Virus record (IMG/VR): IMGVR_UViG_2534682002_000024
DNA from: a virus
Taxonomy: Duplodnaviria; Heunggongvirae; Uroviricota; Caudoviricetes
DNA: 40,622 nucleotides
Direction: 5' to 3' (one strand)
Shown: positions 1,351 through 32,399 of the stretch, one piece after another
Position numbering within the stretch: position 1 is the stretch's first letter
Layout of the letters: each line of letters begins with the position of its first letter
The notes under the pieces: generated by a model
Told to the model about the DNA's origin: nothing
What the model saw: only the letters and a program-made list of their open reading frames with translations
The model's database searches: none
Made by a program: the position numbers and the translations under genes

Positions 1351-1565
1351 TTAATGGGTTTTGATGTAGCCGCGCACGCACTCTTCGACTAAGCCCCAGA
1401 ACCAGTCGCTATCAATAGTGATGCCGACTTTGGTATTAGCGGGCTTGCCAAGAACGCCCAGCTCGTCGCAGACGGTACGCCCATAACAAGGGCCACTGTT
1501 GACGTCCACTTCGACGTACATCTCCTGGGTTTTAATGCCATCAGGGTATAGCGCGGCGATTTTTT
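1351..1565 (-). pseudogene. 3' remnant of a host gene truncated by the prophage; C-terminal pattern resembles nucleoside hydrolase family
   Basis: Track ORF 1351..1581 starts with an ATG that falls inside the putative phage end repeats. The tail (PDG...YVEVDV...GRTVCD...[12 protein letters not shown]) resembles IU-nucleoside hydrolase C-termini and sits beside a nucleoside transporter. Family assignment is from memory only. Confidence 0.4.
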
Positions 1566-1640
1566 TGATACCGATTTGCATTTCATTTGATACTGCTGAA
1601 AAACGCCGATACGCAACTTATTTGATACTAAATCGGCGCT
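1564..1640 (+). repeat. Prophage right-end region with three direct TTTGATAC repeats (candidate MuA-type transposase binding sites)
   Basis: TTTGATAC occurs at 1564, 1586 and 1621. The first two are 22 bp apart, matching the periodicity of Mu end-binding sites, and a TG dinucleotide lies at 1566-1567. This is about 100 bp beyond the mom-like stop, as in Mu. Confidence 0.5.
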
Positions 1641-1674
1641 TTTCTTTTGAGTTTTAGAATGAGTTTTTAAGCGC

Positions 1675-2412
1675 TCATTCACTCTCTTTCAAACCAGTTT
1701 TAACTGTTTGTGGTTTTGGGTAAGGCTGGACTTTGAATAGCTTTGTGTTGAGGCGTTTTTTGGCCCTCTTGTTCAGAAACCGGATGTAACGAAACTGTCG
1801 GAACTTATGAACATTGGCTCTGTCAATATTAGCCCTCAGATGTTCACCTCGTTGTCCGCCTCGTTTAATGGCATTCCTGCAAATCTCGTGATACCACTCG
1901 CCATCAAGTTCATAGAATATTGATTCATGGCTGCCTACATAATCAAAATTGCTTGCCTGATACACGACACCAAGACAGCCACAACGCTCATCTGCAAACG
2001 ACTGAACCCACTGTACCTGCGGATAAAGCTGCCTGATTAGCTTGAGCGCGTAACTGATTGCCCTTGATTCGGAGTTTCTCGGCATACAGTCATGCAGCCA
2101 TAGCCGGTTAAGCTCCATATATTCTCGGTTCTGCGTACCCGTTACGACGCGTGCACCACTGTTTGGGTTAAGGGCGTAACCCCATTGCATTACGCCAACA
2201 AGTTCCCGTTCTGAAAATATGCCCAGATGAAGGTAGGAGTTATTTACGAAACGGTGGCTGTAATGTTTATTGACGATGACCAGTCTGGCCAGCCAGCAAC
2301 TTATTGTCTCAACCCGCAACTCACGGGAGCCATAACCAACGATATTGTCGTTATAGCGAATAAGTTCAGGCGTGCTGATGATTCGGGATGTGACTTGCTT
2401 TCTGTTCCCCAC
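1675..2412 (-). CDS. mom: Mom-like DNA modification protein (acyltransferase-like)
   Basis: 245-aa ORF that is the last gene before the prophage end and overlaps the 3' end of a Com-like zinc-finger gene, which is the com-mom arrangement of Mu. Size is near Mu Mom (about 231 aa). Identity rests on context, not sequence recall. Confidence 0.6.
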
Positions 2413-2566
2413 GACAGGATTTCCTTGTGTATGTGGGGTGCTCTGTGGCGCTCGGAGATGTGATTTGATTGAGGGTTTTACAGCGCGGACATTTTACTTC
2501 CAGATAACTGAAACTGGCCCGTGCCAGTAGCTTATTGCAGTGTCGGCACCGTATGTTTCGATACAT
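2366..2566 (-). CDS. com: Com-like zinc-finger translational activator
   Basis: [14 protein letters not shown]...VKCPRCK has the CxxC...CxxC spacing and residues of Mu Com (IRC.NCNKLL...CPRCK). An AGGAGG Shine-Dalgarno lies 10 nt upstream of the ATG at 2566. The track ORF begins at an upstream ATG (2611) that I consider less likely. Confidence 0.7.
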
Positions 2567-2599
2567 GGCCGCATAACCTCCTGCTTTGTTGTTGATGCC

Positions 2600-2790
2600 T
2601 TTCTCATGCAATCGATCGACAAAAACGATCGATTCGATTTGTTTAATTGATACAACAAATAGATTGAAAAGTCATCAACAATGATTCAGGTAGGTGATTA
2701 TTTACTTAAAGAAAACGAAGAGTTAGGTGGTGAAAACGATCATAAAATGATCATTTTATTGACTTTTTATATAGTGAAGGTAGGATCGCG
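2600..2790 (-). promoter_or_regulatory. GATC-rich candidate Dam/OxyR-regulated mom promoter region
   Basis: Five GATC sites (2614, 2627, 2738, 2749, 2784) within about 175 bp upstream of com in AT-rich DNA. Mu Pmom is controlled through clustered Dam sites. Confidence 0.4.
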
Positions 2791-2979
2791 CGTATATGTA
2801 GTATGTTTCAAATCAATGGGATACTACATACATAAAGAGCGACCCAGATAGCGCGAACTATTCTGGGCCGATTTAGACAATTTTGCATCAATGCTTTACT
2901 TCGAGCTCGTGGCGTATCCTATGATATTCCCCAGTCTCCTGTAAAGCAGAGATGCATAAAAAGGAGATCTTTATCATGG

Positions 2980-3147
2980 ATGAAAGAGCCTGTTTGCCCT
3001 GCCTGTAAGACTCCCTTACAGCTCATCTATCGCCGTTCTCGATCTCAAAATGGCAAGACATACAAACCAAAAAATGCTTCCTGTTTCAGGATGCTGATAT
3101 GTCCTGCCTGTTCTCCCCGGAGGGAAAATACACAAAACGTGCATTAA
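2980..3147 (+). CDS. Unlisted 55-aa double-CPAC zinc-ribbon ORF (MKEPVCPACKTPLQLIYRRSRSQNGKTYKPKNASCFRMLICPACSPRRENTQNVH)
   Basis: Found by manual translation; below the ORF track size cutoff. AGGAG at 2962-2966 precedes it. Two CPAC motifs plus a third Cys suggest a zinc ribbon. It is divergent from com-mom in an otherwise non-coding gap of about 570 bp. Confidence 0.3.
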   Translation: MKEPVCPACKTPLQLIYRRSRSQNGKTYKPKNASCFRMLICPACSPRRENTQNVH

Positions 3148-3185
3148 CAAATTCACCCGGCAGGGAAACCTGCCGGTCGGTATTG

Positions 3186-3431
3186 TTACATCATAGTACC
3201 GTCAGTTCCGGGCTGAACCGGCTCTGGTTGCTCTACGGGTTGAGGCTCATTTTCCGTGCTGTTTTCAGCCGGAGAACGGCCAACCATTCGGGCCAGCACT
3301 TCATCAACATATGCGTCGATTTGTGCCTCAAAATCCTTGCGAACCTGCGCCTTCAGCACGCGGTTCACTTCTTCAGAATAAAGTGCCTGTTTGACAAGCT
3401 CTTCAGTAACCGTGCCTTTAATCTCTGGCAT
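3186..3431 (-). CDS. Hypothetical 81-aa protein with helical N-terminus and acidic proline-rich tail
   Basis: ORF with AAGGAG-like RBS upstream (caaaaggagaatattc-ATG). No recognisable family. Confidence 0.5.
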   Translation of the reverse strand: MPEIKGTVTEELVKQALYSEEVNRVLKAQVRKDFEAQIDAYVDEVLARMVGRSPAENSTENEPQPVEQPEPVQPGTDGTMM

Positions 3432-3466
3432 GAATATTCTCCTTTTGCAGGTATATTGCCCCGTTA

Positions 3467-3649
3467 TCAGAGCGGGGTCGGGTCGTTTGGGGATGACGGT
3501 GCCTGTGCTGTTTTACTGAGTTTTTCAGCTGCCGCATCATCAATTTTACGGCGAATATAATTTCTGATGACCTTATAACCGCCGCTCACCAGATATAACG
3601 CACTGACCACTGCGCAGAAATAAAGCAGCATTGTATGAACGAATGTCAT
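3467..3649 (-). CDS. Hypothetical 60-aa small membrane protein (one N-terminal TM helix, basic C-terminus)
   Basis: Hydrophobic stretch MLLYFCAVVSALYLVSGGY followed by a charged tail. A GC hairpin (CCCCGttatcagaGCGGGG, about 3453-3470) separates it from the next gene. Confidence 0.45.
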   Translation of the reverse strand: MTFVHTMLLYFCAVVSALYLVSGGYKVIRNYIRRKIDDAAAEKLSKTAQAPSSPNDPTPL

Positions 3650-3795
3650 ATAACCTTACCTTTGATATTGACTACATAATTCGTTATCGGGTAAAAACAT
3701 CGAAGCGACTGATAACTACTCCTTCGGTAGTATTTTTATTTTCCTTTATGGGTTAGGTAGCTCCCGCCAGCCGTATCATGACCGGCGGGATTTTT

Positions 3796-5835
3796 TTATT
3801 CTGTTACCGCTTTTTTCACTTCCACCACAATGCTGTCAATCAGCACCGGGTAAGTTGCATTTTTGGTGATATCCGTTACGCGGAGTTTGTCCACCGGGAA
3901 AGTTCCTACTGGTGACTGCGTCAGGGTAAACGCGGCACCATCCTGACCATCAATAACCGGAATAACCTGAAGGCTGTTATTTCCTGCAAAACGGAAGGCC
4001 AGCGTATGCCATTCATTATCAAATGCACCAAAGGTTCCCAGTTTCTGGTTATTTGTTGCCACTTTTGCATTGTGGTACATCACATTCAGGTCTTTTGCGT
4101 CTGTCTGGATGTAGAACGATGCCAGCAGATTATTCCCTGCATCCCCTGTCAGGGTGACACCCTGCGGCAGAGAGGAAACCGGCCAGTAAAGCGCCATGAC
4201 ATACTGGTTTGCCACCAGGTCGCCAGGTACTTTAAAACGACAACTGATTAAACCACCATTTTTCAGCAGTTCAGCACCAGTACCGGCATCATGATCCAGA
4301 TACCAGGATGATTTACCTGTTTCCTTGGTCAGTTTCATTGCCTTACCACCTGTGCCTCCTGCATCACTGATAATTTCAGCTTTACCGCCAGCCGGCTCCC
4401 AGCCCTGGGCTTTCAGATTTCCTTCTGACTCACTGACACGGTAAGACAGCAGTGTTGTGGTTACTGCTTCAGTTTCTGAAGGTGACGGCACTGGTGCTTC
4501 AGTTTCAGAAGATGGAACATCGGCTTTTACTGTGGTTCGCCCTGCATGAGTCAGAACAGCCGTGGCCAGACGGTCAGAAATAATACCCCGGCGCGCCCAG
4601 GCACTGAAATGGCTGGCCCGGTCCGCAGATGTCCAGGTAGCGGCACTGTTACGCCACGTTGAGCCGTAATAACCAATGGATTCAATATCCGGGTCTTCTG
4701 CCGGATTGTTGGTGGGTACATTCACGCCATTTTCATCTGTCATTAATGGAACGAAATGAATGTTTTTATCTGTTTTGTTTTTGTAGCCGCCATAGATTGC
4801 CTGGTATGCTGGTTCATTTTTCTGTTTCCAGAAATACGTGGTATCGCCACAAATCCACGGAACGCCAGCAGCACTGCCACCGGTACACTGTTCCGCCTGT
4901 TCAGCCAGGTCTGCGCGGAATTTTTCCACCATCGCCAGAAACAGCGCAGAATGCTCCGTCGGCTTCGCATCAATATCAAACTCGCCCTGCATCCACACCA
5001 CAGCAAGCAGGCGGTTTTTCGGGTTCTTCGCCAGTGCCGCTTTTGTCCGGCTGATTAAGTCCTTATACAGCGGCTTATCCACACCCCAGCGGGCTGAGTC
5101 CTCTGAAGCACCCGTGCTGTCACTGTACGTGCCGTCAGCACCCGCCGTGAATGCAGAACCACCACGGCAGCAGGGAACCAGCAGAATCCCCGCATCTGCC
5201 GGAATAAACGGCAGCAGTTTTTTGGCAATGTGAAGCCCCTGACCCACGGTGCCATATTGCCCTTTAGCCACATCCGCTTTCGGGTGATTTTTTCCACTCA
5301 TATCCTGCACATCATGCAGACAGTGGTCGGCCAGAATGATGTCGTTATACTGACAGGCTTTACCTCCCGGCGTGACTGTACTGCGACGGGCTAACTGCAT
5401 AATACGCGGTTCGGGGCGGTCATATGTCTCCGGCAGTGGCAGACCTTCACCGTAAGCCATACCGTTTGACTGACCAGCAAGAACCACCACGTAATACCAG
5501 GAAGGGGAGCTGGAAGCAGTTTCATTTCCTGACGGACGGGTATGTGTTTCAGCATTATCCCAGTCTGACGGTTCAGCAGTACCGGCAACATCAGCACTTA
5601 ACGGAATGACCGCACCAATACCCGCTCCGGTAATTTCCACACTCGGATCACCGGATACTGGCCTTACCCACAGGCAATCCCGTGTATTAAAACTGATGAG
5701 ACAGTCAGCAAATGTCATTCCTCCTTTTGTTTCGGCCGGAGGAAAGGGAGCCTCAAGAAATGCCGCTGTACCACCGGAAACTTTAACAGTAAAGTTTCCG
5801 GGCATTGATGATAGTTGAACCCATTTGGACGTCAT
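3796..5835 (-). CDS. 679-aa SGNH/SASA-type carbohydrate esterase with lectin-like beta-sandwich C-terminal domain (cargo gene)
   Basis: VVVLAGQSNGMAYGEG carries the GQSN motif typical of sialate O-acetylesterase-like (SASA/DUF303) SGNH hydrolases. No N-terminal signal peptide. An S/T/P-rich linker precedes a C-terminal region that looks like a concanavalin/laminin-G type domain. It occupies the gin to com-mom interval. Confidence 0.6.
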   Translation of the reverse strand: MTSKWVQLSSMPGNFTVKVSGGTAAFLEAPFPPAETKGGMTFADCLISFNTRDCLWVRPVSGDPSVEITGAGIGAVIPLSADVAGTAEPSDWDNAETHTRPSGNETASSSPSWYYVVVLAGQSNGMAYGEGLPLPETYDRPEPRIMQLARRSTVTPGGKACQYNDIILADHCLHDVQDMSGKNHPKADVAKGQYGTVGQGLHIAKKLLPFIPADAGILLVPCCRGGSAFTAGADGTYSDSTGASEDSARWGVDKPLYKDLISRTKAALAKNPKNRLLAVVWMQGEFDIDAKPTEHSALFLAMVEKFRADLAEQAEQCTGGSAAGVPWICGDTTYFWKQKNEPAYQAIYGGYKNKTDKNIHFVPLMTDENGVNVPTNNPAEDPDIESIGYYGSTWRNSAATWTSADRASHFSAWARRGIISDRLATAVLTHAGRTTVKADVPSSETEAPVPSPSETEAVTTTLLSYRVSESEGNLKAQGWEPAGGKAEIISDAGGTGGKAMKLTKETGKSSWYLDHDAGTGAELLKNGGLISCRFKVPGDLVANQYVMALYWPVSSLPQGVTLTGDAGNNLLASFYIQTDAKDLNVMYHNAKVATNNQKLGTFGAFDNEWHTLAFRFAGNNSLQVIPVIDGQDGAAFTLTQSPVGTFPVDKLRVTDITKNATYPVLIDSIVVEVKKAVTE

Positions 5836-18998: not shown

Positions 18999-19414
18999 AT
19001 GAAGCCCTTCTGGTTGCGCCCGAATACCGCTGCATCAGACTGAACCTGTGGTAAATCCCCGGATTCAGGGGCCGCTCCGTTCGTATCCACACCTACCGGC
19101 ACATTGCCGTTCATGACATCTTTCAGCCAGGCCAGCGCCTCACGGTAACGGTCACGCGCCTGATCTGAGGCTCGCTGATCGCACAGGTAATAAAAGGCAA
19201 TCGCGCAACAGTGCTGAACAAGAACGGCCGGAATAACCTCCAGCGGCAGCGTGTAACGGGCGGACAGATAGCTGTCGATAAGGGCTGACGCATCTGTCAG
19301 CGCCCGGTTCAGCTTGCGCGTATCCGGCTCATCCGAACGGGGCACAGCCAGTAACGGCCTGAGCAAATCCTCGCGGTAACGCGCCCGCATATCGGTTTCA
19401 GTGGCGTAATTCAT
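18995..19414 (-). CDS. Mu gp36-like head-tail connector protein
   Basis: 139 aa, in the conserved block between capsid and sheath. Confidence 0.5.
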   Translation of the reverse strand: MNYATETDMRARYREDLLRPLLAVPRSDEPDTRKLNRALTDASALIDSYLSARYTLPLEVIPAVLVQHCCAIAFYYLCDQRASDQARDRYREALAWLKDVMNGNVPVGVDTNGAAPESGDLPQVQSDAAVFGRNQKGFI

Positions 19415-19809
19415 GCACGGGCCTGTTTCGCTTTGTTACCGGTCTTTTTCCAGGGAGCATCCTGTCCGGCTTCGGCTTCGGCTTCGGCTTCGGCTTCGGC
19501 TTCGGCTTCGGCTTCGGCTTCGGCTTCGGCTAAATCTGTACCGGCCACTGCATGAACCACACCCGCCACGCTCCCCGCATCATCAGCAGACGTCTGTAGT
19601 ATTCGCACAGTGAGGCATGGCTCCGCCTCCAGTCGGGCAAGCTGCTCCGGGGTGACCTCAACCTGCTGACGTCCACGCGTGAACAGAAACCCCGCACGAC
19701 GAAACGCCGAACGACTGCAACGCACTTCTGCCAGCACCGTGACAGAATTGTCACCACTGACCTGAAGACCTGAATCATCTGTTGCTGCCACAGTGTGATG
19801 TTCATTCAT
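19411..19809 (-). CDS. Mu J/gp35-like head-tail protein carrying an (EA)10 dipeptide repeat
   Basis: 132-aa ORF following the major capsid gene; contains AEAEAEAEAEAEAEAEAEAEA encoded by a hexanucleotide tandem repeat. Confidence 0.6.
   Translation of the reverse strand: MNEHHTVAATDDSGLQVSGDNSVTVLAEVRCSRSAFRRAGFLFTRGRQQVEVTPEQLARLEAEPCLTVRILQTSADDAGSVAGVVHAVAGTDLAEAEAEAEAEAEAEAEAEAEAGQDAPWKKTGNKAKQARA
19468..19530. repeat. (GGCTTC)10 perfect tandem hexanucleotide repeat inside a coding region
   Basis: Ten uninterrupted GGCTTC units plus a partial unit, read directly from the sequence; in-frame, encoding (Glu-Ala)n on the minus strand. Confidence 0.95.
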
Positions 19810-25609: not shown

Positions 25610-27264
25610 CCCCGATCAAATTCATGATATGCCTCATCGTCATCACGATAACCGCCCTCCATGGCCCGCGACCGCTCCGGCAGCGCCTGACAGGCTGATT
25701 CATCCAGGATGAAGCCCTCCATGTATGACGCCCGGTTTGCCATACAGAGCGCCACGGCAAAATCGCCATGGCGGCGGGCGTTCACAGCCGTTGCGTTCTG
25801 GTCCTTCGTACGCCCCTTGTCAATTTGCGGGATACCGTTCACCACCTTCACATGGCGCAAATCATCAAGCGTGGTCTGATGGCGGGCGACGAGGATATTC
25901 TGATCCTCAAACTCGGCCTTCAGTTTTGGCATCCACTCGCAGTACCACTTCGGCGATAACATCACGCAGTCGATGATGTCCGGGCCAAAGGCCAGCAGCG
26001 CGGCTTCGGCCAGATAGCCGCCGTTACCGGTGGCGTCGAACGCCGCACCGACCAGCGCCGGAACGCGGGTCAGGATGTACATCATCACCTGCTCCTGCTG
26101 GGCATACGGCAGGTTGCGCAGCTCCACGCGAAACACCTCGCGTTTTGCCAGGGATTCAGTGATTTCCAGCAGCACAAAACAGGACAGGTCTCCGGTGCGG
26201 GCAAAGTCTTCCCCGAAGCTGAAGCGGGAACGGGAATTTAACGCCTCTAAAAGCGGTTTTAAATGTTCTTCACACCAGGTTAAAACCTCCGATTCACGCA
26301 GCCATGCGGCACGGCTGATGAAGTCGTCCGGGGCTTCAAACGTCAGAATCGGGATGTCGCGGATCATCGCCATTTCAATAAGCGCGTGAGGAATATAGGC
26401 ACCGCCGGATTTTTTCGGGATACAGCCGTATTCCTCGTCGGCATCCTCACGGGTCGGGGCGTTTTTGTAGAGATCATCACGCCACTTCTGCTCGCTTTCC
26501 GGTGACCATTCGCGGCCGGTGACATAACAGATACGACGGTACAGCCCGTCCGCAATGGCATCATCCAGGGTAATGCGGTGGACGCTGTAATCCTTGCGCC
26601 CTTCGCGGGCTTCCTGAATGTACTGATTAAACAGATTATCGACGCCGTTATGCGTGGAGATAATACGCACGCGCGCGCCCCACATGGTAAGCGCCATTGC
26701 CGCCTTGAGAAGCTCATCCAGTGACTCGTGGAACGCGGCTTCATCAATCACCACATCCCCCTGAAGGCCGCGCAGGTTTGACGGACGGGAAGACAGTGCC
26801 TGAATTTTGAATCCACTGTTCGGAAAGCGGATCATGTAGGTCAGAATTTCTTCTTTTTTATCCCGATCCCAGAAGGTCTGCTCATACACATCAGCATCTG
26901 CCAGCTGGTTAAAGGCACGGGAGAACAGTGCGCAGGCAGAAATATATTCCAGCGCCATCTCCTGCTTTGACCCCACATAAAACACATTGCGGCCACCACG
27001 CCGCTTAGGCTTTGCGGCGGTAATGACGTTACGCCCGGCTTCCGCCCAGGTAAGCCCGGTGCGGCGGGATTTTTCCGCGATGCAGACCTCGCTTTCATCC
27101 TCAAACCAGCGGGCCTGATAATCCAGAAATACCGGCATATCACCGGGCAAATCAAGGCTGTCCGGCACATCCACGCCCAGCAGGGCTTTTTCACCGGCCA
27201 GATCAATTTTGCGGGTGGAGACGGTATTCGTCAGTAAGGGGGAGAGTTCTTCGGCGTTATTCAT
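25600..27264 (-). CDS. Terminase large subunit (Mu gp28-like)
   Basis: 554 aa; ATPase-like N-terminal region and nuclease-like C-terminal region with conserved acidic residues. Confidence 0.8.
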   Translation of the reverse strand: MNNAEELSPLLTNTVSTRKIDLAGEKALLGVDVPDSLDLPGDMPVFLDYQARWFEDESEVCIAEKSRRTGLTWAEAGRNVITAAKPKRRGGRNVFYVGSKQEMALEYISACALFSRAFNQLADADVYEQTFWDRDKKEEILTYMIRFPNSGFKIQALSSRPSNLRGLQGDVVIDEAAFHESLDELLKAAMALTMWGARVRIISTHNGVDNLFNQYIQEAREGRKDYSVHRITLDDAIADGLYRRICYVTGREWSPESEQKWRDDLYKNAPTREDADEEYGCIPKKSGGAYIPHALIEMAMIRDIPILTFEAPDDFISRAAWLRESEVLTWCEEHLKPLLEALNSRSRFSFGEDFARTGDLSCFVLLEITESLAKREVFRVELRNLPYAQQEQVMMYILTRVPALVGAAFDATGNGGYLAEAALLAFGPDIIDCVMLSPKWYCEWMPKLKAEFEDQNILVARHQTTLDDLRHVKVVNGIPQIDKGRTKDQNATAVNARRHGDFAVALCMANRASYMEGFILDESACQALPERSRAMEGGYRDDDEAYHEFDRGCW

Positions 27265-27845
27265 CAGGCTTTACCCAACAGAATCCCCTTAATACGGGAC
27301 TCAAGCTGTTCACTCATCCCGTCCACGCCGCGCAGCTCGTCGGTGACGGCGTTTGCCATCTCTTCAGCAAATGCGGCCCGGATTTCTTTTTCACGCTTAA
27401 TGCTGCGCTCGGCGGCACTTTCCGCACGCTGTGCTGACAGGAGGATGTCCTTAATAAGACGCATATCCACGTCGCTGTCACTGTTCAGGGATTCGGTCGC
27501 GGCACGCAGACGGCGGTACATCAGGGCGCGGGACATCTCCAGGATCAATGCAGTGGTTTCACCGGTTGGCTTGTCCCCCAGTTCGGCCATCATGGCTTTT
27601 GTCTGCTCGCGTAAATCACGCAGGTTACGGGCAATCAGCTCATTACGGGAGGCTTCCCGGCTGATGGCCGCCGGTGAAAGCTGCTGCTCTTCCGGCAGGC
27701 CCGCCTCACGGATCAGACGGTTGATTTCCTCGCGTATCTGGACCTGCGTCAGACGTTTTTCACGCAGCATTTCCAGCAGTGGCTTACGGATGCTGTCGGG
27801 GAGCAAATCCACCTTGCGCACGCGTCCACGCGTCGGCTTGTCCAT
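27264..27845 (-). CDS. Putative terminase small subunit (Mu gp27-like)
   Basis: 193-aa helical, charged protein immediately upstream of the large terminase. Confidence 0.6.
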   Translation of the reverse strand: MDKPTRGRVRKVDLLPDSIRKPLLEMLREKRLTQVQIREEINRLIREAGLPEEQQLSPAAISREASRNELIARNLRDLREQTKAMMAELGDKPTGETTALILEMSRALMYRRLRAATESLNSDSDVDMRLIKDILLSAQRAESAAERSIKREKEIRAAFAEEMANAVTDELRGVDGMSEQLESRIKGILLGKA

Positions 27846-27847
27846 CG

Positions 27848-28138
27848 TTACCCCCTTGCGCGTGGTTTCTTCACACCCGGAACGCTGGCGCGGCCTTCCG
27901 CCACATCCTGCCCCCGGCCGGTCAGTTCCGCGATGAAATAACCGTTAATCAGAACGCGTTTGCGCACCAGTCCCTGCTCGGCAAGCCAGGCAATGTGGGT
28001 GTGAACGGTGTCGCGGGACACGCGGTGGCCGTAATCATCCAGACAGTCCTGGAGCACGGATTCACCCAGTTCACCGTTGTAATCTGCCAGCGACCGCAGA
28101 ATGACCAGACGCTGATCTTCAGTAATGAAATTACTCAT
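27848..28138 (-). CDS. Mu gp26-like protein
   Basis: 96-aa ORF, conserved position. Confidence 0.45.
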   Translation of the reverse strand: MSNFITEDQRLVILRSLADYNGELGESVLQDCLDDYGHRVSRDTVHTHIAWLAEQGLVRKRVLINGYFIAELTGRGQDVAEGRASVPGVKKPRARG

Positions 28139-28442
28139 TCGTTTTTTTCCTTACCGCCTGCTCCAGCAGCAGTTCGTTCTGATAGGAGACAGAGCGGAGC
28201 GTGGCGTTCGTGGTTTTCAGTTCACCCCGCAGGGTCACGATTTCCACATTCAGACGGTTGACCTCAGCTTCTGTCGGCAGTGACGACAGGCGGGTTTCCA
28301 CCTTCTCAACGCGGTCGGAGAGTTTTTCAAAGGCCTCGCGGGGGACAAACGTTTTGCGCATCAGCGCCATGAATATCCCGCCAGCGGTTGCCGTCGCCGA
28401 AAGGATCGGCACAACATAATCTTTAACGATGCTGACCCACAT
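28131..28442 (-). CDS. Mu gp25-like membrane protein (possible releasin-type lysis factor)
   Basis: 103 aa with one N-terminal TM segment (VVPILSATATAGGIFMALM) and a coiled-coil tail; located in the lysis region. Confidence 0.5.
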   Translation of the reverse strand: MWVSIVKDYVVPILSATATAGGIFMALMRKTFVPREAFEKLSDRVEKVETRLSSLPTEAEVNRLNVEIVTLRGELKTTNATLRSVSYQNELLLEQAVRKKTNE

Positions 28443-28650
28443 GACGGGCCTCCATGATGTTCTGGCAGTTCACACAACGGATGGCATCCGGCACAGCAAC
28501 AAGACGTGCGGCGGGGATCTCTCCGCCACAGTCCGCGCAGACACGTCTGCCCGGAGCATCCATTGCCCGGCGCTTACGTGTCAGCCGGTTACAAAGGGCG
28601 CGTTCTGATCCCCGCTCCATCACAGCCTGAGCACGATCTGAATCATCCAT
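28423..28650 (-). CDS. TraR/DksA-family C4 zinc-finger protein
   Basis: CADCGGEIPAARL...IRCVNCQ is a C4 zinc finger of TraR/DksA type. Start placed at ATG 28650 (MDDSDRAQ), which has an AAGGA RBS. Confidence 0.7.
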   Translation of the reverse strand: MDDSDRAQAVMERGSERALCNRLTRKRRAMDAPGRRVCADCGGEIPAARLVAVPDAIRCVNCQNIMEARHVGQHR

Positions 28651-28660
28651 ACCTTTTTCC

Positions 28661-29032
28661 TTACTTCGTCTTTCCTGCCGGAACAGCAGGCGTTCCGGCC
28701 ATATCAGTAAATTCATGTTGTCGCCGCGCCTCCAGACGACGAATACTGGCCTTGTCCACGTTGCAGTTCTTGATCACCGCCAGCAGTTGCAGGTTGTAAG
28801 TGACCGATGCCCCAAACGTGAACGGCTCCGGCACAGGAGGGACCAGGCAGTCAGCCAGCCATTCAGCGGGGATCGGCACCGGCTTCACAGGCACGTATTT
28901 CACAGACGGCCCGGCGCACCCGATCAGCCACATCATCAGGAACAGGGGCAGAGGCCGCAGGCACCGCTGCCAGCGACCGGCGGACAACGCTCTGCTGTCC
29001 CTCGCTGTGCTGAATGTTCTGTTGTTTTTCAT
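28661..29032 (-). CDS. Putative o-spanin (outer-membrane lipoprotein spanin subunit)
   Basis: Lipobox LIGC after a hydrophobic segment, proline-rich mature part, and an overlapped out-of-frame arrangement with the upstream i-spanin candidate. Start codon uncertain. Confidence 0.5.
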   Translation of the reverse strand: MKNNRTFSTARDSRALSAGRWQRCLRPLPLFLMMWLIGCAGPSVKYVPVKPVPIPAEWLADCLVPPVPEPFTFGASVTYNLQLLAVIKNCNVDKASIRRLEARRQHEFTDMAGTPAVPAGKTK

Positions 29033-29363
29033 TCGTGGCCGCCTCACTGATTTGTGAAATGAGTTGCAGGGTGTGCTGCTGATTTGCCAGCACCTGACGC
29101 GCCTCATCCCGCTCACGCACAAGCACCTGATTATTGTCTTCAAGGCGCTGCGTCTTCTGGTGCATTCCCCATATCGCGGCAACCAGTACAGCGATAATCC
29201 CCAGCGCCGCCATGCACGCCCCGGCAATCAGGGCCGGTAAGGCATTATTCACCGCAGCCACAGGACACCCCGTAACAGCAGTACCGCACACAGCAGCGCT
29301 ATCATGAGCGGTCGCCAGAAGCGGTTCAGACTTTCGGCAAGTCGTAGCGACATAACCATTCAT
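28863..29363 (-). CDS. Putative i-spanin (inner-membrane spanin subunit)
   Basis: TM segment (ALPALIAGACMAALGIIAVLVAAIW) followed by a coiled-coil periplasmic region; directly after the endolysin. Start codon uncertain. Confidence 0.5.
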   Translation of the reverse strand: MNGYVATTCRKSEPLLATAHDSAAVCGTAVTGCPVAAVNNALPALIAGACMAALGIIAVLVAAIWGMHQKTQRLEDNNQVLVRERDEARQVLANQQHTLQLISQISEAATNEKQQNIQHSEGQQSVVRRSLAAVPAASAPVPDDVADRVRRAVCEIRACEAGADPR

Positions 29364-29826
29364 CCGCCGAACGGCGGGCCTCAAGGCCGGGGAGTTTCAC
29401 CCCCTTTGAATAAATCCAGCGGATATACTGCTTACAGGACGCGGGCATCTGCCCGGCATTGATCAGGCGCAGAAGCGTGGAGTTGCGGAAGTTCGTTTCA
29501 CCGGCCCAGAAGATCCACGAAGCCAGCGCCACAGTCTGACCACGGGTAAGCGGCACCTGAACACGCCGATCAATGGCCGCAAAGGCCCATTTCATGTCCT
29601 TTTCCAGTAGTTCCAGGCATTCTTCATCCGTCAGGGTCATACCCGGTTTCACATCCGGGCCGGTATGGCCGTAACAGATGGTGGGTGTACCGGTGGGATC
29701 GATATACGTGGAGTTTTCTTTCCCTTCCCAGTAACCGGTGTAATGCGTGGCAATCGTGAACGTCCCGGCACCGGCCAGAACAAGGGCAATCAGCTTTTTA
29801 CGCAGTGGTGCGGGGAGTTTTGGCAT
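29326..29826 (-). CDS. Endolysin, phage lysozyme family with N-terminal signal-anchor-release type hydrophobic segment
   Basis: Hydrophobic segment LIALVLAGAGTFTIA at the N-terminus, then a lysozyme-like body. No holin gene was recognised nearby. Confidence 0.75.
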   Translation of the reverse strand: MPKLPAPLRKKLIALVLAGAGTFTIATHYTGYWEGKENSTYIDPTGTPTICYGHTGPDVKPGMTLTDEECLELLEKDMKWAFAAIDRRVQVPLTRGQTVALASWIFWAGETNFRNSTLLRLINAGQMPASCKQYIRWIYSKGVKLPGLEARRSADEWLCRYDLPKV

Positions 29827-29897
29827 TGTTACGCTGTCTCATGATGTTCTCTGAGTCAGCGTAACGGTGAAGGAAAGGCGGCAGGCTTTGCGGAATA

Positions 29898-30323
29898 TCA
29901 GAAAAGTGGCGGTTGCGTTCTTGCCAGATGCAGACGGCGCTGTTCACGTATGACGGTATAAATCTGGGTTTCTGACATCCGGTAATGGCGGCGAAGGGAT
30001 TCAATTTTCTCGCCCCGGTCCCAGCGCGAAAATATCTCATTGTTTCGCAGCTCGGCAAAGAGAGATTCCCCGACCGGCAGGTAATAACCCCGTCCGCCCA
30101 TATAGGCTGCCTGAGCCGCAGCCACCTTGCGTGCCAGTTTACCGGCCAGTACCGGCTCAATCCCCTGACGCTGAAGTTCTGCGCCGGTGACTTCAACCAG
30201 TTCTGACAGGGTCCGCGGCCAGTTCTTTTTGAGAACATCATCAGGGATGTCATCAAGGCGGTCGATAAGGGCGTGCAGTTGCTCACTGTCACCACCAAAC
30301 ATGCTCATCTGAGTTTCTGCCAT
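29898..30323 (-). CDS. Mor/C-family transcriptional activator
   Basis: 141 aa; the C-terminal part (GRGYYLP ... IYTVIREQRRLHLARTQPPLF) parallels Mu Mor as I recall it. Whether it is the Mor or the C equivalent is not resolved. Confidence 0.7.
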   Translation of the reverse strand: MAETQMSMFGGDSEQLHALIDRLDDIPDDVLKKNWPRTLSELVEVTGAELQRQGIEPVLAGKLARKVAAAQAAYMGGRGYYLPVGESLFAELRNNEIFSRWDRGEKIESLRRHYRMSETQIYTVIREQRRLHLARTQPPLF

Positions 30324-30354
30324 ATCAGCCTCCGGTTCTCACGTTCCCGGTAAG

Positions 30355-30386
30355 TTTAAAATAAAAATCCCGCGTTGTGGCGGGAT
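30355..30386 (-). terminator. Intrinsic terminator downstream of gemA-like gene
   Basis: Hairpin ATCCCGC-gttgtg-GCGGGAT (30367-30386) followed on the minus strand by a T-rich run (TTTTTATTTTAAA). Confidence 0.5.
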
Positions 30387-30392
30387 TTGGGG

Positions 30393-30902
30393 TTAACGGG
30401 GAAGTGATTTTTCATACTGCCTGCAAACGGCGTCATACCCCATCAGCGTGCGTTCGGGCATTCCCATCGCGGCCAGCATTTTGCGGCGGTGCCATCGCTT
30501 GAGACGCTCCAGCACATCTGAGGCCAGGGCGGGGTGTTGCTCCAGCCACTGCCAGTTTGCCACACCTTCGCCGCCGTTCTGCGCGGCCGTCTGCGATTTC
30601 ACCCAGCGGTTAAGGGCGGTTTCCGCACCATCGGTGATAAAGCCCTGCCGGAGCATCACCTTCCAGATGGCGCGAATTTTGGCGGTCACCGTACCCGGTT
30701 TTAAGGCCCGGTTAACCGGGTTCTGACGCACTTTAAAACCGCGTTTTTTGAAAACATCCAGCACGCGGGATAACTCATCCGGTGACATATCCCGGCAGCT
30801 GGTTTTGCCGGTGGCTGCCAGCAGCGCGGATGTATAAGTCTCATCATCCAGGGCAAGCTCGCGCTTTGCCACATGAATGGCGGATATCAGTTTTCCTCTC
30901 AT
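30393..30902 (-). CDS. GemA-like protein (Mu gp16 family)
   Basis: 169 aa; sits immediately upstream of the Mor/C-type gene as gemA does in Mu. Confidence 0.65.
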   Translation of the reverse strand: MRGKLISAIHVAKRELALDDETYTSALLAATGKTSCRDMSPDELSRVLDVFKKRGFKVRQNPVNRALKPGTVTAKIRAIWKVMLRQGFITDGAETALNRWVKSQTAAQNGGEGVANWQWLEQHPALASDVLERLKRWHRRKMLAAMGMPERTLMGYDAVCRQYEKSLPR

Positions 30903-31195
30903 ACCGTATTTACCTTTTTACGGACATGGAAAGCCTTTTCTGCCTCATCCCACCGGGCATGGTGTGTTGGTGGAATAATCATTATGTGCCAGCCATCTCT
31001 GGTTGTTATCCGGCAGAAAAATTCACCGCTATATAACACAATGGCCTGCTGAATGAGCGCATCAGCCGCCCGTTCAACCGGATGTCTTTTATCAAAAAAG
31101 CAGATGATTTTTCGACATAACCACCGGGTAATAACAAATGCGCCGAAAAAGGATGTGATATATAAGCACCAGAACAACAGAGAACTATTGTCCAT
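30899..31195 (-). CDS. Hypothetical membrane protein (one N-terminal TM helix)
   Basis: 98-aa ORF; hydrophobic segment LLFWCLYITSFFGAFVI. Confidence 0.45.
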   Translation of the reverse strand: MDNSSLLFWCLYITSFFGAFVITRWLCRKIICFFDKRHPVERAADALIQQAIVLYSGEFFCRITTRDGWHIMIIPPTHHARWDEAEKAFHVRKKVNTV

Positions 31196-31710: not shown

Positions 31711-31722
31711 TCACCTGCCTGT

Positions 31723-32115
31723 TTAATCAGTTTCCAGTGCTTTGCTACGGGCAACAGCCTCACACTCAAAAAATACCGACTCCGGCACACGCTCCTTTAA
31801 TTCACGAACAAGAAAATCATTAACGAGTTCATGACGTCTTATATTTCTTTCCTTTTCCTCCTGGCGCAATACAGCAAGGCGGTATTCAACAGTCCGGCGT
31901 TGTTTCTGAAAGACAGCTAGTGCTTTTCTGGCAGAGTTACGCCATGTATCATCGCCACAGGGTTCGTATTCAAGCTGAAATTTAATCTCTTCAATGGTTT
32001 CTTTTATTTTTGCCAGCAAGCTAAGACAGTCGCTGATTGTCTTCAGTTTTTCATTATCAATATAACTTCTCACGCATTCACCTCCCGTCATTCCGGTAAA
32101 GCTGAAATATGGCAC
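31723..32115 (-). CDS. Hypothetical early protein (coiled-coil); start may be an internal ATG
   Basis: 130-aa ORF in the co-oriented early operon. Confidence 0.4.
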   Translation of the reverse strand: MPYFSFTGMTGGECVRSYIDNEKLKTISDCLSLLAKIKETIEEIKFQLEYEPCGDDTWRNSARKALAVFQKQRRTVEYRLAVLRQEEKERNIRRHELVNDFLVRELKERVPESVFFECEAVARSKALETD

Positions 32116-32399
32116 CAGTGCGTCACCTGTCCGTCCTCATCTTCAAGGCAGGCTCCGGTTTCTTCATCAATAAAAAAGCCTTCATACCCCATATGGCCGA
32201 TGCGCAGTTCCTGTTGGTCACCATACTGAACAATCAGCACGACAGCCTCCATATCAGGCGGAAATGCGTCATCCAGTGAATGCCAGGGATAACCGCGCAA
32301 ATCCCCGAAATAAACACCGGTCAGCGTTCCGCCACAAACCGACATTCCGGCGACACATACCAGAGGCTCGTCTGATTCAACAAATAATGTCGTTATCAT
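32088..32399 (-). CDS. Hypothetical strongly acidic early protein (candidate DNA mimic)
   Basis: 103 aa with about 19 Asp/Glu against 2 Arg and no Lys, clustered as DEETGACLEDEDGQ; translationally coupled to the upstream gene. Confidence 0.45.
   Translation of the reverse strand: MITTLFVESDEPLVCVAGMSVCGGTLTGVYFGDLRGYPWHSLDDAFPPDMEAVVLIVQYGDQQELRIGHMGYEGFFIDEETGACLEDEDGQVTHWCHISALPE

Follow-up and report, generated by a model that had tools for sequence, protein, structure and literature searches.

We examined the lysis genes of a 40,622-nucleotide stretch of tailed-phage DNA (Caudoviricetes; IMG/VR record IMGVR_UViG_2534682002_000024), which is referred to below, at its full length, as the window. 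[quoted passage not shown] The original prediction, made from the letters of the same DNA, had described a lysis cassette lacking a recognisable holin and had listed five elements at 28131-29826. All five were found there, on the minus strand; the list had omitted orf36, an open reading frame (ORF) of 36 codons located between the endolysin gene and the gene of the inner-membrane spanin (i-spanin). The holin-less, releasin-type interpretation is supported by our results. The design itself has already been described for Mu, and the cassette is a diverged example of it.

Phage Mu encodes no holin and none of its membrane proteins behaves as one; gp22 is a SAR endolysin, gp23 and gp23.1 are the spanins, and gp25, the prototype of DUF2730, is needed for gp22 to be released (Chamblee et al. 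2022, mBio, PMC9239132). The releasin-type mechanism that the original prediction named for Mu gp25 is thus a published one. The dependence of gp22 on gp25 is due to the basic residues K6 and K7 of the endolysin, and gp25 also aids the release of unrelated, heterologous SAR endolysins (PMC9239132). In the Mu record AF083977 the order of genes is C, SAR endolysin gp22, i-spanin gp23, outer-membrane spanin (o-spanin) gp23.1, gp24, releasin gp25, winged helix-turn-helix (wHTH) protein gp26 and small terminase subunit (TerS) gp27, and the window has the same order (Table 1). The likeness to Mu includes a SAR-type endolysin of the glycoside hydrolase family GH24 with a basic N-terminus, overlapped spanin genes, a small Cys-rich protein, the DUF2730, wHTH and TerS genes, the apparent lack of a holin, and the location of the operon directly downstream of a C-type activator.

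Table 1. Genes and other features of the lysis region, listed in the direction of transcription (positions in the window)
Feature	Position	Strand	Matches and remarks
Mor/C-family late transcription activator	29898..30323	-	PF08765 2.8e-32; phrog_532; directly upstream of the cassette
Intergenic region, putative C-dependent late promoter	29827..29897 (71 bp)	-	conserved block
lys, SAR-type endolysin, GH24 lysozyme	29326..29826	-	PF00959 6e-37; phrog_7; Mu gp22 homologue
orf36, unannotated, 36 codons	29249..29359	-	between lys and i-spanin; MVMSLRLAESLNRFWRPLMIALLCAVLLLRGVLWLR
i-spanin (Rz/LysB-like), one N-terminal transmembrane segment	28863..29261	-	phrog_214 6e-32; Mu gp23 homologue
o-spanin (Rz1/LysC-like lipoprotein)	28661..29032	-	PF23793 LysC 1e-15; phrog_3001 8e-42; Mu gp23.1 homologue
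TraR/DksA-family C4 zinc finger	28423..28650	-	PF01258 8e-12; phrog_54 1e-19; TIGR02419 7e-22; Mu gp24 position
DUF2730 protein, Mu gp25 releasin homologue	28131..28442	-	PF10805 7e-20 (residues 6-97); phrog_736 7e-32
gp26-like winged-helix protein (VpaChn25_0724 family)	27848..28138	-	NF050184 1e-33; phrog_436 1e-39; syntenic with Mu gp26
gp27 small terminase gene	27264-27845	-	PF11985 2e-33; after the gp26-like gene

The endolysin, Lys, was aligned with Mu gp22 at 39% identity over 158 aa (E 9e-35), and its catalytic triad E34-X8-D43-X5-T49, as read from the translation, occupies columns that show no variation when Lys is aligned with Mu gp22 and relatives. The protein begins with MPKLPAPLRKK and continues with LIALVLAGAGTFTIAT. 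This N-terminal segment of 16-20 aa is rich in G, A and T, with a Kyte-Doolittle (KD) hydropathy of 1.39 over 19 aa and a G/A/S/T content of 55%, and the corresponding segment of Mu gp22 gave values of 1.09 and 50%. Such weak hydrophobicity resembles that of SAR domains. In its composition, hydropathy and alignment the Lys N-terminus fits a SAR segment, the releasability of which is predicted, and this agrees with the signal-anchor type of N-terminus proposed for the enzyme in the original prediction. The solved chains nearest to Lys were 3hde, 4zpu and 3hdf (E 1e-24), and their alignments start at Lys residue 5, so that the PxxLRK motif and the hydrophobic anchor segment are covered. We take 3hde and 3hdf, which carry the label 'Lysozyme' in the PDB, to be the SAR endolysin of phage 21. 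The SAR segment is directly preceded by a basic cluster, R9-K10-K11, with K3 as an additional basic residue, and the cluster is kept as LRK(K/R) in the relatives from Citrobacter, Salmonella and Serratia. By analogy with Mu gp22, R9, K10 and K11 may confer releasin dependence on Lys.

The fourth annotated gene after lys (the fifth if orf36 is counted) encodes the DUF2730 protein, which was described beforehand as a gp25-like protein with a single transmembrane (TM) segment. We found 34% identity to Mu gp25 (E 4e-18) and one N-terminal TM segment with a KD value of 1.80; the topology statements made here and below rest on Kyte-Doolittle and Wimley-White scans together with homology. Judged by its sequence, the protein belongs to the Mu-like type I group of DUF2730. 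Where its TM segment passes into the cytoplasmic part it has the pair R29-K30, which stands opposite R-R of Mu gp25 in the alignment. The structure modelled by AlphaFold2 consists of helices only (H3-30, H35-53 and H58-102), with a mean pLDDT (predicted local distance difference test score) of 73 and values of 77-92 in the cytoplasmic part, and it has no enzyme-like fold; as modelled, the protein would fit a membrane-tethered helical hairpin better than an enzyme. A releasin function of this protein would follow by extrapolation from its homology to Mu gp25.

The two spanins were recovered as proposed, in overlapped form and with the lipobox L-I-G-C in the o-spanin, the Cys codon of which is located at 28916-28918. 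The i-spanin shares 27% identity with Mu gp23 (E 4e-7) and has a TM segment with a KD value of 2.64, and between the o-spanin and Mu gp23.1 the identity is 49% over 45 aa. The open frames span 28863-29384 for the i-spanin and 28661-29227 for the o-spanin, each of them longer than the gene that we assign. The most likely start of the i-spanin, as judged from the sequence comparison, is GTG 29261, chosen since it corresponds by homology to the ATG with which the gene begins in Citrobacter, Salmonella and Serratia and has a Shine-Dalgarno (SD) energy of -6.3 kcal/mol. For the o-spanin, ATG 29032 appears most likely (SD -7.7 kcal/mol, with an MKNN start also present in Citrobacter), and TTG 28987 is an alternative. 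As the o-spanin gene starts inside the i-spanin gene and ends beyond it, the architecture is overlapped.

The starts given for both spanins by the Prokaryotic Genome Annotation Pipeline (PGAP), which we checked on identical DNA, e.g. NZ_AP018796.1, are probably wrong. The PGAP start of the i-spanin, 29291, has an SD energy of +0.6 kcal/mol, and the choice varies by genome among the equivalents of 29291, 29261 and 29213. The PGAP start of the o-spanin (lysC), GTG 28903, is downstream of the lipobox Cys, which leaves the annotated protein without a lipoprotein signal; in the Sakai genome the o-spanin is wholly unannotated. These probable start-site errors of the spanins in RefSeq annotation are systematic, with the o-spanin annotated without its lipobox.

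To search for a holin, six-frame ORFs of at least 25 aa were collected from the whole window and scanned best-first by Kyte-Doolittle and Wimley-White hydropathy. A multi-TM ORF in the region was the observation that could have contradicted the absence of a class I or class II holin, as claimed originally. By this hydropathy scan, neither the cassette nor the rest of the prophage contained a coding-strand ORF with two or more hydrophobic segments, and hence no class I (three TM segments) or class II (two TM segments) holin was found there. Searches of Pfam, PHROG and NCBIfam gave no significant holin-family match among the examined genes. Three ORFs with two segments were discarded as artefacts, since they are antisense to the DUF826/DUF1378 genes, to the DNA-circularisation gene and to the transposase gene. 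No gene of a two-TM pinholin is located beside lys: on its upstream side lie 71 bp of non-coding DNA and then the activator gene, and on its downstream side orf36, with one segment, and the spanins. Homologues of Mu gp19 and gp20 were likewise not found, each of these matching only its own Mu-specific PHROG, and the 71 bp between the activator gene and lys leave no room for counterparts of gp19 (four TM segments) or gp20 (one TM segment).

We also considered that a long N-terminal extension of the i-spanin, starting at ATG 29363, could give a two-TM i-spanin or holin, as a weak second segment is apparent upstream of the i-spanin TM segment. This candidate was rejected, because the stretch evolves as non-coding in that frame, with ratios of nonsynonymous to synonymous changes (pN/pS) of 1.5-6.6, and is interrupted by a stop codon in Serratia; the PGAP start 29291 lacks an SD sequence. 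Besides the proteins discussed above, three single-TM proteins have no assigned function, namely orf36 at 29249-29359, a 98-aa ORF at 30899-31195 and DUF1378 at 3467-3649. The 98-aa protein is encoded on the minus strand by an early-region gene immediately upstream of gemA; it has a strong N-terminal TM segment (KD 1.82) and matches phrog_17269, to which no function is assigned, with no match in Pfam or NCBIfam. In shape, with an N-terminal TM segment and a cytoplasmic tail, it resembles Lcc6 of phage LambdaSo, which is described below, and a link to lysis is without support.

In the related prophage Sp18 of E. coli Sakai, ECs_5772 (positions 19412-19597 of locus L078) is an ORF of 61 aa that ends in a basic C-terminus and has two strongly hydrophobic segments (KD 2.62 and 1.91), a shape like that of a class II holin; its sole match is a PHROG of unassigned function (7e-5). 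It belongs to a variable segment of the early region, replaced in the window by two soluble genes at 31722-32393. Since it is not conserved together with the cassette, it is unlikely to be the holin of the latter.

Extrapolating from Mu, the cassette would act as follows. The C-like activator would turn on a promoter presumably located in the 71-bp gap upstream of lys. Host Sec would then export the lysozyme, and its SAR segment would tether the enzyme, in an inactive form, in the inner membrane, locked by K3, R9, K10 and K11 on the cytoplasmic side, as homology to Mu gp22 and to the nearest solved SAR lysozymes suggests. The DUF2730 protein, helical and facing the cytoplasm, would promote the escape of the SAR segment from the bilayer. 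The freed lysozyme would refold and degrade the cell wall, and the complex of i-spanin and o-spanin would disrupt the outer membrane. With steps based on release, the timing of lysis would be set by the release of the endolysin and not by a hole-forming holin.

One element that sets the cassette apart from that of Mu is orf36, which was missed both by the original prediction and by PGAP. Its start is likely the invariant Met codon at 29353 (Met3), giving a product of 34 aa; as a frame of 36 codons it overlaps the 3' end of lys by 34 nt and the start of the i-spanin gene by 13 nt. RefSeq and IMG/VR gave 26 distinct junction sequences, in all of which the frame is unbroken and has the same number of codons; it is intact also in Citrobacter braakii, Salmonella, Serratia, one unassigned assembly and 14 metagenome contigs. 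Nearly all sequences retain the pattern M-x-x-R-(L/F) ... W-R-P-x-M ... (L/M)-R-G-V-L-W-L; one E. coli variant has C for W and A for V. In the 75 nt past the lys stop codon, 24 of the 46 variant states are synonymous in the orf36 frame (7 and 8 in the other frames), and the variable columns are distributed as 12/7/18 over codon positions 1/2/3. On the 64 nt that overlap no other gene, pN/pS for orf36 was 0.2-0.7 in eight of nine cross-clade pairs and 1.0 in the ninth, Salmonella vs Serratia; over the same stretch it was 1.5-6.6 in the i-spanin frame, where the extension across orf36 meets the Serratia stop codon, and 1.0-1.4 in the lys frame. The SD energy of orf36 is moderate (-5.0 kcal/mol) and stronger than that of lys. 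On the strength of these patterns of conservation, we consider that orf36 is quite probably a real, translated gene.

No significant match to orf36 was obtained in Pfam, PHROG or NCBIfam, and among 1.84 billion representative proteins HMMER found one true relative, a 34-aa call starting at Met3; two further matches were false, being repetitive sequences. The exact peptide was absent from a collection of 15 billion proteins, in which the gene had been called a single time, and a degenerate DNA motif, searched in IMG/VR and metagenomes, returned nothing beyond the same lineage and one chance match. No ORF of this type was found at the gp22/gp23 junction of Mu, and inspection by eye revealed no resemblance between orf36 and Mu gp20. 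We also considered that orf36 could be made as a fusion to Lys by -1 frameshifting, and rejected this, as no slippery heptamer was visible by eye in the overlap and the overlap differs between clades.

The 19 C-terminal residues of orf36 are strongly hydrophobic (KD 2.31, and 2.17-2.51 in the scored orthologues) and contain an Arg-Gly pair that is kept in every sequence examined. The position of orf36 in the cassette suggests a link to lysis. Tentatively, and with the odds rather against it, the product could be an inner-membrane peptide that acts in lysis, either as a regulator of SAR release or retention (an 'anti-releasin' or co-releasin) or as a minimal depolarising trigger. It is not a canonical holin.

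In a stronger form of this idea the cassette would not be truly holin-less: orf36 could act on the inner membrane in a depolarising manner, like a pinholin or a small toxin, and trigger or time the SAR release together with the DUF2730 protein or instead of it. Its position inside the lysis operon with overlaps on both sides, the purifying selection and the intact frame in every relative examined are consistent with such a role, as is the hydropathy of its best 19-aa window. Depolarisation can release this class of enzyme, as a pinholin is able to release Mu gp22 (PMC9239132). There is also a precedent in Shewanella phage LambdaSo, where Lcc6 (65 aa), a single-TM protein outside the known classes, is essential for lysis with a SAR endolysin (bioRxiv 10.1101/2024.01.23.576932). 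Lcc6, which we compared by its description only, thus shows that a small single-TM protein that is neither holin, endolysin nor spanin may be needed in a SAR system; however, its gene is remote from the lysis genes, and the protein carries a cytoplasmic tail and works together with a pinholin. Moreover, the product of orf36 contains a single hydrophobic segment, which includes an invariant Arg, has next to no soluble domain and matches no holin family. Mu lyses without a gene of this type, and the energy poison dinitrophenol (DNP) delays Mu lysis rather than triggering it (PMC9239132). The translation of orf36 is itself predicted, from a moderate SD sequence and a start buried in the coding sequence of lys. 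We therefore regard a triggering role of orf36 as quite unlikely, and prefer the Mu-like scheme in which the DUF2730 protein promotes the release of Lys.

Several observations weigh against this Mu-like scheme. The identity of the proteins to those of Mu is only 27-39%. The cytoplasmic domain of the DUF2730 protein has a net charge of +2 (12 acidic and 14 basic residues), whereas that of Mu gp25 is slightly acidic, so the acidic-microenvironment idea proposed for Mu gp25 gains no support here. The absence of a holin rests on hydropathy scans, and orf36, being strongly hydrophobic and conserved, could supply a membrane-acting function. DUF2730 is also not confined to holin-less cassettes: in Klebsiella phage Kp4866-3 (OK490420.1; positions 1489-3791 of locus L077) the same block of TraR, DUF2730 and gp26-like genes is present, but it follows a non-SAR endolysin of the GH108 type and two multi-TM ORFs, one of which has a weak match to a holin PHROG. 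The occurrence of DUF2730 in phages with non-SAR endolysins and holin-like genes may mean that the role of the family is broader than SAR release or different from it.

From here it could be argued that Lys is released spontaneously on accumulation and that the DUF2730 protein serves another late function, linked to TraR, the wHTH protein or the terminase, or acting generally at the membrane. In Kp4866-3 the block adjoins the terminase genes even though the endolysin is of the cytoplasmic type, most DUF2730 types are paired with non-SAR endolysins, and lysis still takes place, at about 3 h, in the Mu 25::cam mutant (PMC9239132). Against this, a requirement has been demonstrated for one pairing only, that of a type I DUF2730 protein and a SAR muramidase of the gp22 type, which is the pairing present here, and Lys has four basic residues before its SAR segment, more than Mu gp22, in which such residues block spontaneous release. 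Spontaneous release thus appears unlikely to us, and release promoted by the DUF2730 protein is preferred.

The window contains a Mu-like transposable prophage, spanning approximately 1547-40031, with all genes of interest on the minus strand. Among the genes of the prophage are those of a transposase and a Mor/C-family activator, gemA, Mu-type terminase, portal and tail genes, com/mom and an invertase. Over its full extent it shares about 98% identity with Sp18 of E. coli O157:H7 Sakai. The 2.1 kb surrounding the lysis cassette are 100% identical to many genomes of Shiga-toxin-producing E. coli (STEC), and matching cassettes, counted at a query coverage of at least 80% and mostly at an identity of at least 95%, were present in 231 of 5426 complete E. 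coli genomes. A scan of genome contigs with Lys returned a single locus, in Citrobacter.

In the copy of the prophage in E. coli E2855, two genes of the tail-fibre region are annotated as frameshifted, which could be taken to mean that the prophage is defective, that its cassette is a remnant in decay and that the missing holin reflects gene loss. We consider this very improbable, as this gene set recurs from Escherichia to Serratia, leaving no space in which a gene could have been lost, with intact frames under purifying selection, and Mu itself has no holin in the same layout. In addition, Sp18 was reported to be intact, with its DNA efficiently packaged into particles (PMC2669165). Again, a functional cassette of the Mu type is the preferred explanation.

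In the left flank of the window, a gene for a membrane protein with seven segments is located at 1-1251 on the minus strand, and the prophage ends near 1547 and 40031. This gene indicates an insertion site unlike those in Sakai (sorM) and E2855 (inside a lambdoid prophage); such variation would be expected of a phage that transposes. At 3186-5835 on the minus strand, an accessory block separates the invertase from com/mom; it contains a 679-aa protein with a SASA sialate O-acetylesterase domain and a DUF6645 domain, a 60-aa single-TM DUF1378 protein and a DUF826 protein, as annotated in near-identical genomes. We take this block to be the gene set that Stx phages have between stx, on its upstream side, and the lysis genes, on its downstream side. 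Scans for structured RNAs with Rfam, and for tRNAs, gave no hit in the window.

The activator directly upstream of the cassette has 39% identity with Mu C and 27% with Mu Mor, and a terminator-like hairpin (30365-30388) separates its gene from gemA. It was the single Mor/C-family activator found between gemA and lys (29898-30393), the part of the window searched for such genes, and no counterpart of Mu mor or of the gp18-gp20 middle operon was found between gemA and lys. With one activator and no mor or middle operon in this interval, the early-to-late cascade may be one step shorter than that of Mu. In the putative promoter region, the block CCGCAAA(T/G)CCT ... GTTAC(T/G)CT is kept in the Citrobacter and Salmonella relatives and in the unassigned L047 contig, with a poor fit at the Serratia locus, and it resembles CCATAATCCCG in the annotated Plys region of Mu. 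No sigma-70 consensus promoter was found in the region, as expected for an activator-dependent promoter.

The gene at the position of Mu gp24 encodes, in line with the original prediction, a TraR/DksA-type zinc finger, scoring 77.8 bits against TIGR02419 (cut-off 59.7) and 45.4 bits against PF01258 (cut-off 24.9), with the four Cys of a CxxC...CxxC arrangement visible. The protein resembles Mu gp24 only weakly, around the Cys pairs (E 0.015), and unlike this clear member of the TraR family, Mu gp24 matches no Pfam entry. By position, the TraR-type gene neighbours the lysis genes, and a role in lysis is without support. Further differences from Mu, besides the presence of orf36, are the lack of homologues of gp18-gp20, which include the four-TM gp19 and the one-TM gp20, the longer N-terminus of Lys with its four basic residues, and the two Gly in the Lys SAR segment in place of the six-Gly stretch of Mu.

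Two other lysis systems may be compared with the cassette. The S21-R21 system of phage 21 and RrrD (4zpu) have a lysozyme that is homologous to Lys over its full length, including the N-terminal anchor, and the principle, predicted for Lys, would be the same, a tethered, inactive enzyme being activated by release; in contrast to the pinholin system of phage 21, no two-TM pinholin gene was found in this prophage, which has the DUF2730 protein instead. The lysis genes of phage P2 (Y, K, lysA, lysB and lysC) share with the cassette an o-spanin of the LysC family (PF23793) and spanin genes that are overlapped and not embedded. In P2, too, a hydrophobic accessory gene, lysA, is located between the endolysin and i-spanin genes. 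However, P2 has the holin Y and a soluble endolysin, and its LysA is much larger than orf36 and multi-TM; no sequence similarity between the two was detected.

Our results extend the pairing of releasin and SAR endolysin to the Sp18-type lineage, which is widespread in Shiga-toxin-producing E. coli. This lineage is a 'cleaner' case than Mu, since it lacks gp19 and gp20, once proposed as the holin and antiholin of Mu. It also provides natural variation for the charge-lock model, in that the endolysin has four basic residues and a SAR segment of different composition and the releasin has a tail that is not acidic. The only genuinely new item is orf36, which is hidden from gene callers and could be an overlooked player in the control of the endolysin. 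If its role in lysis were true, it would be an extra, previously unseen membrane component in the holin-less design of Mu, and the lineage concerned occurs in about 4% of complete E. coli genomes, with many STEC among these.

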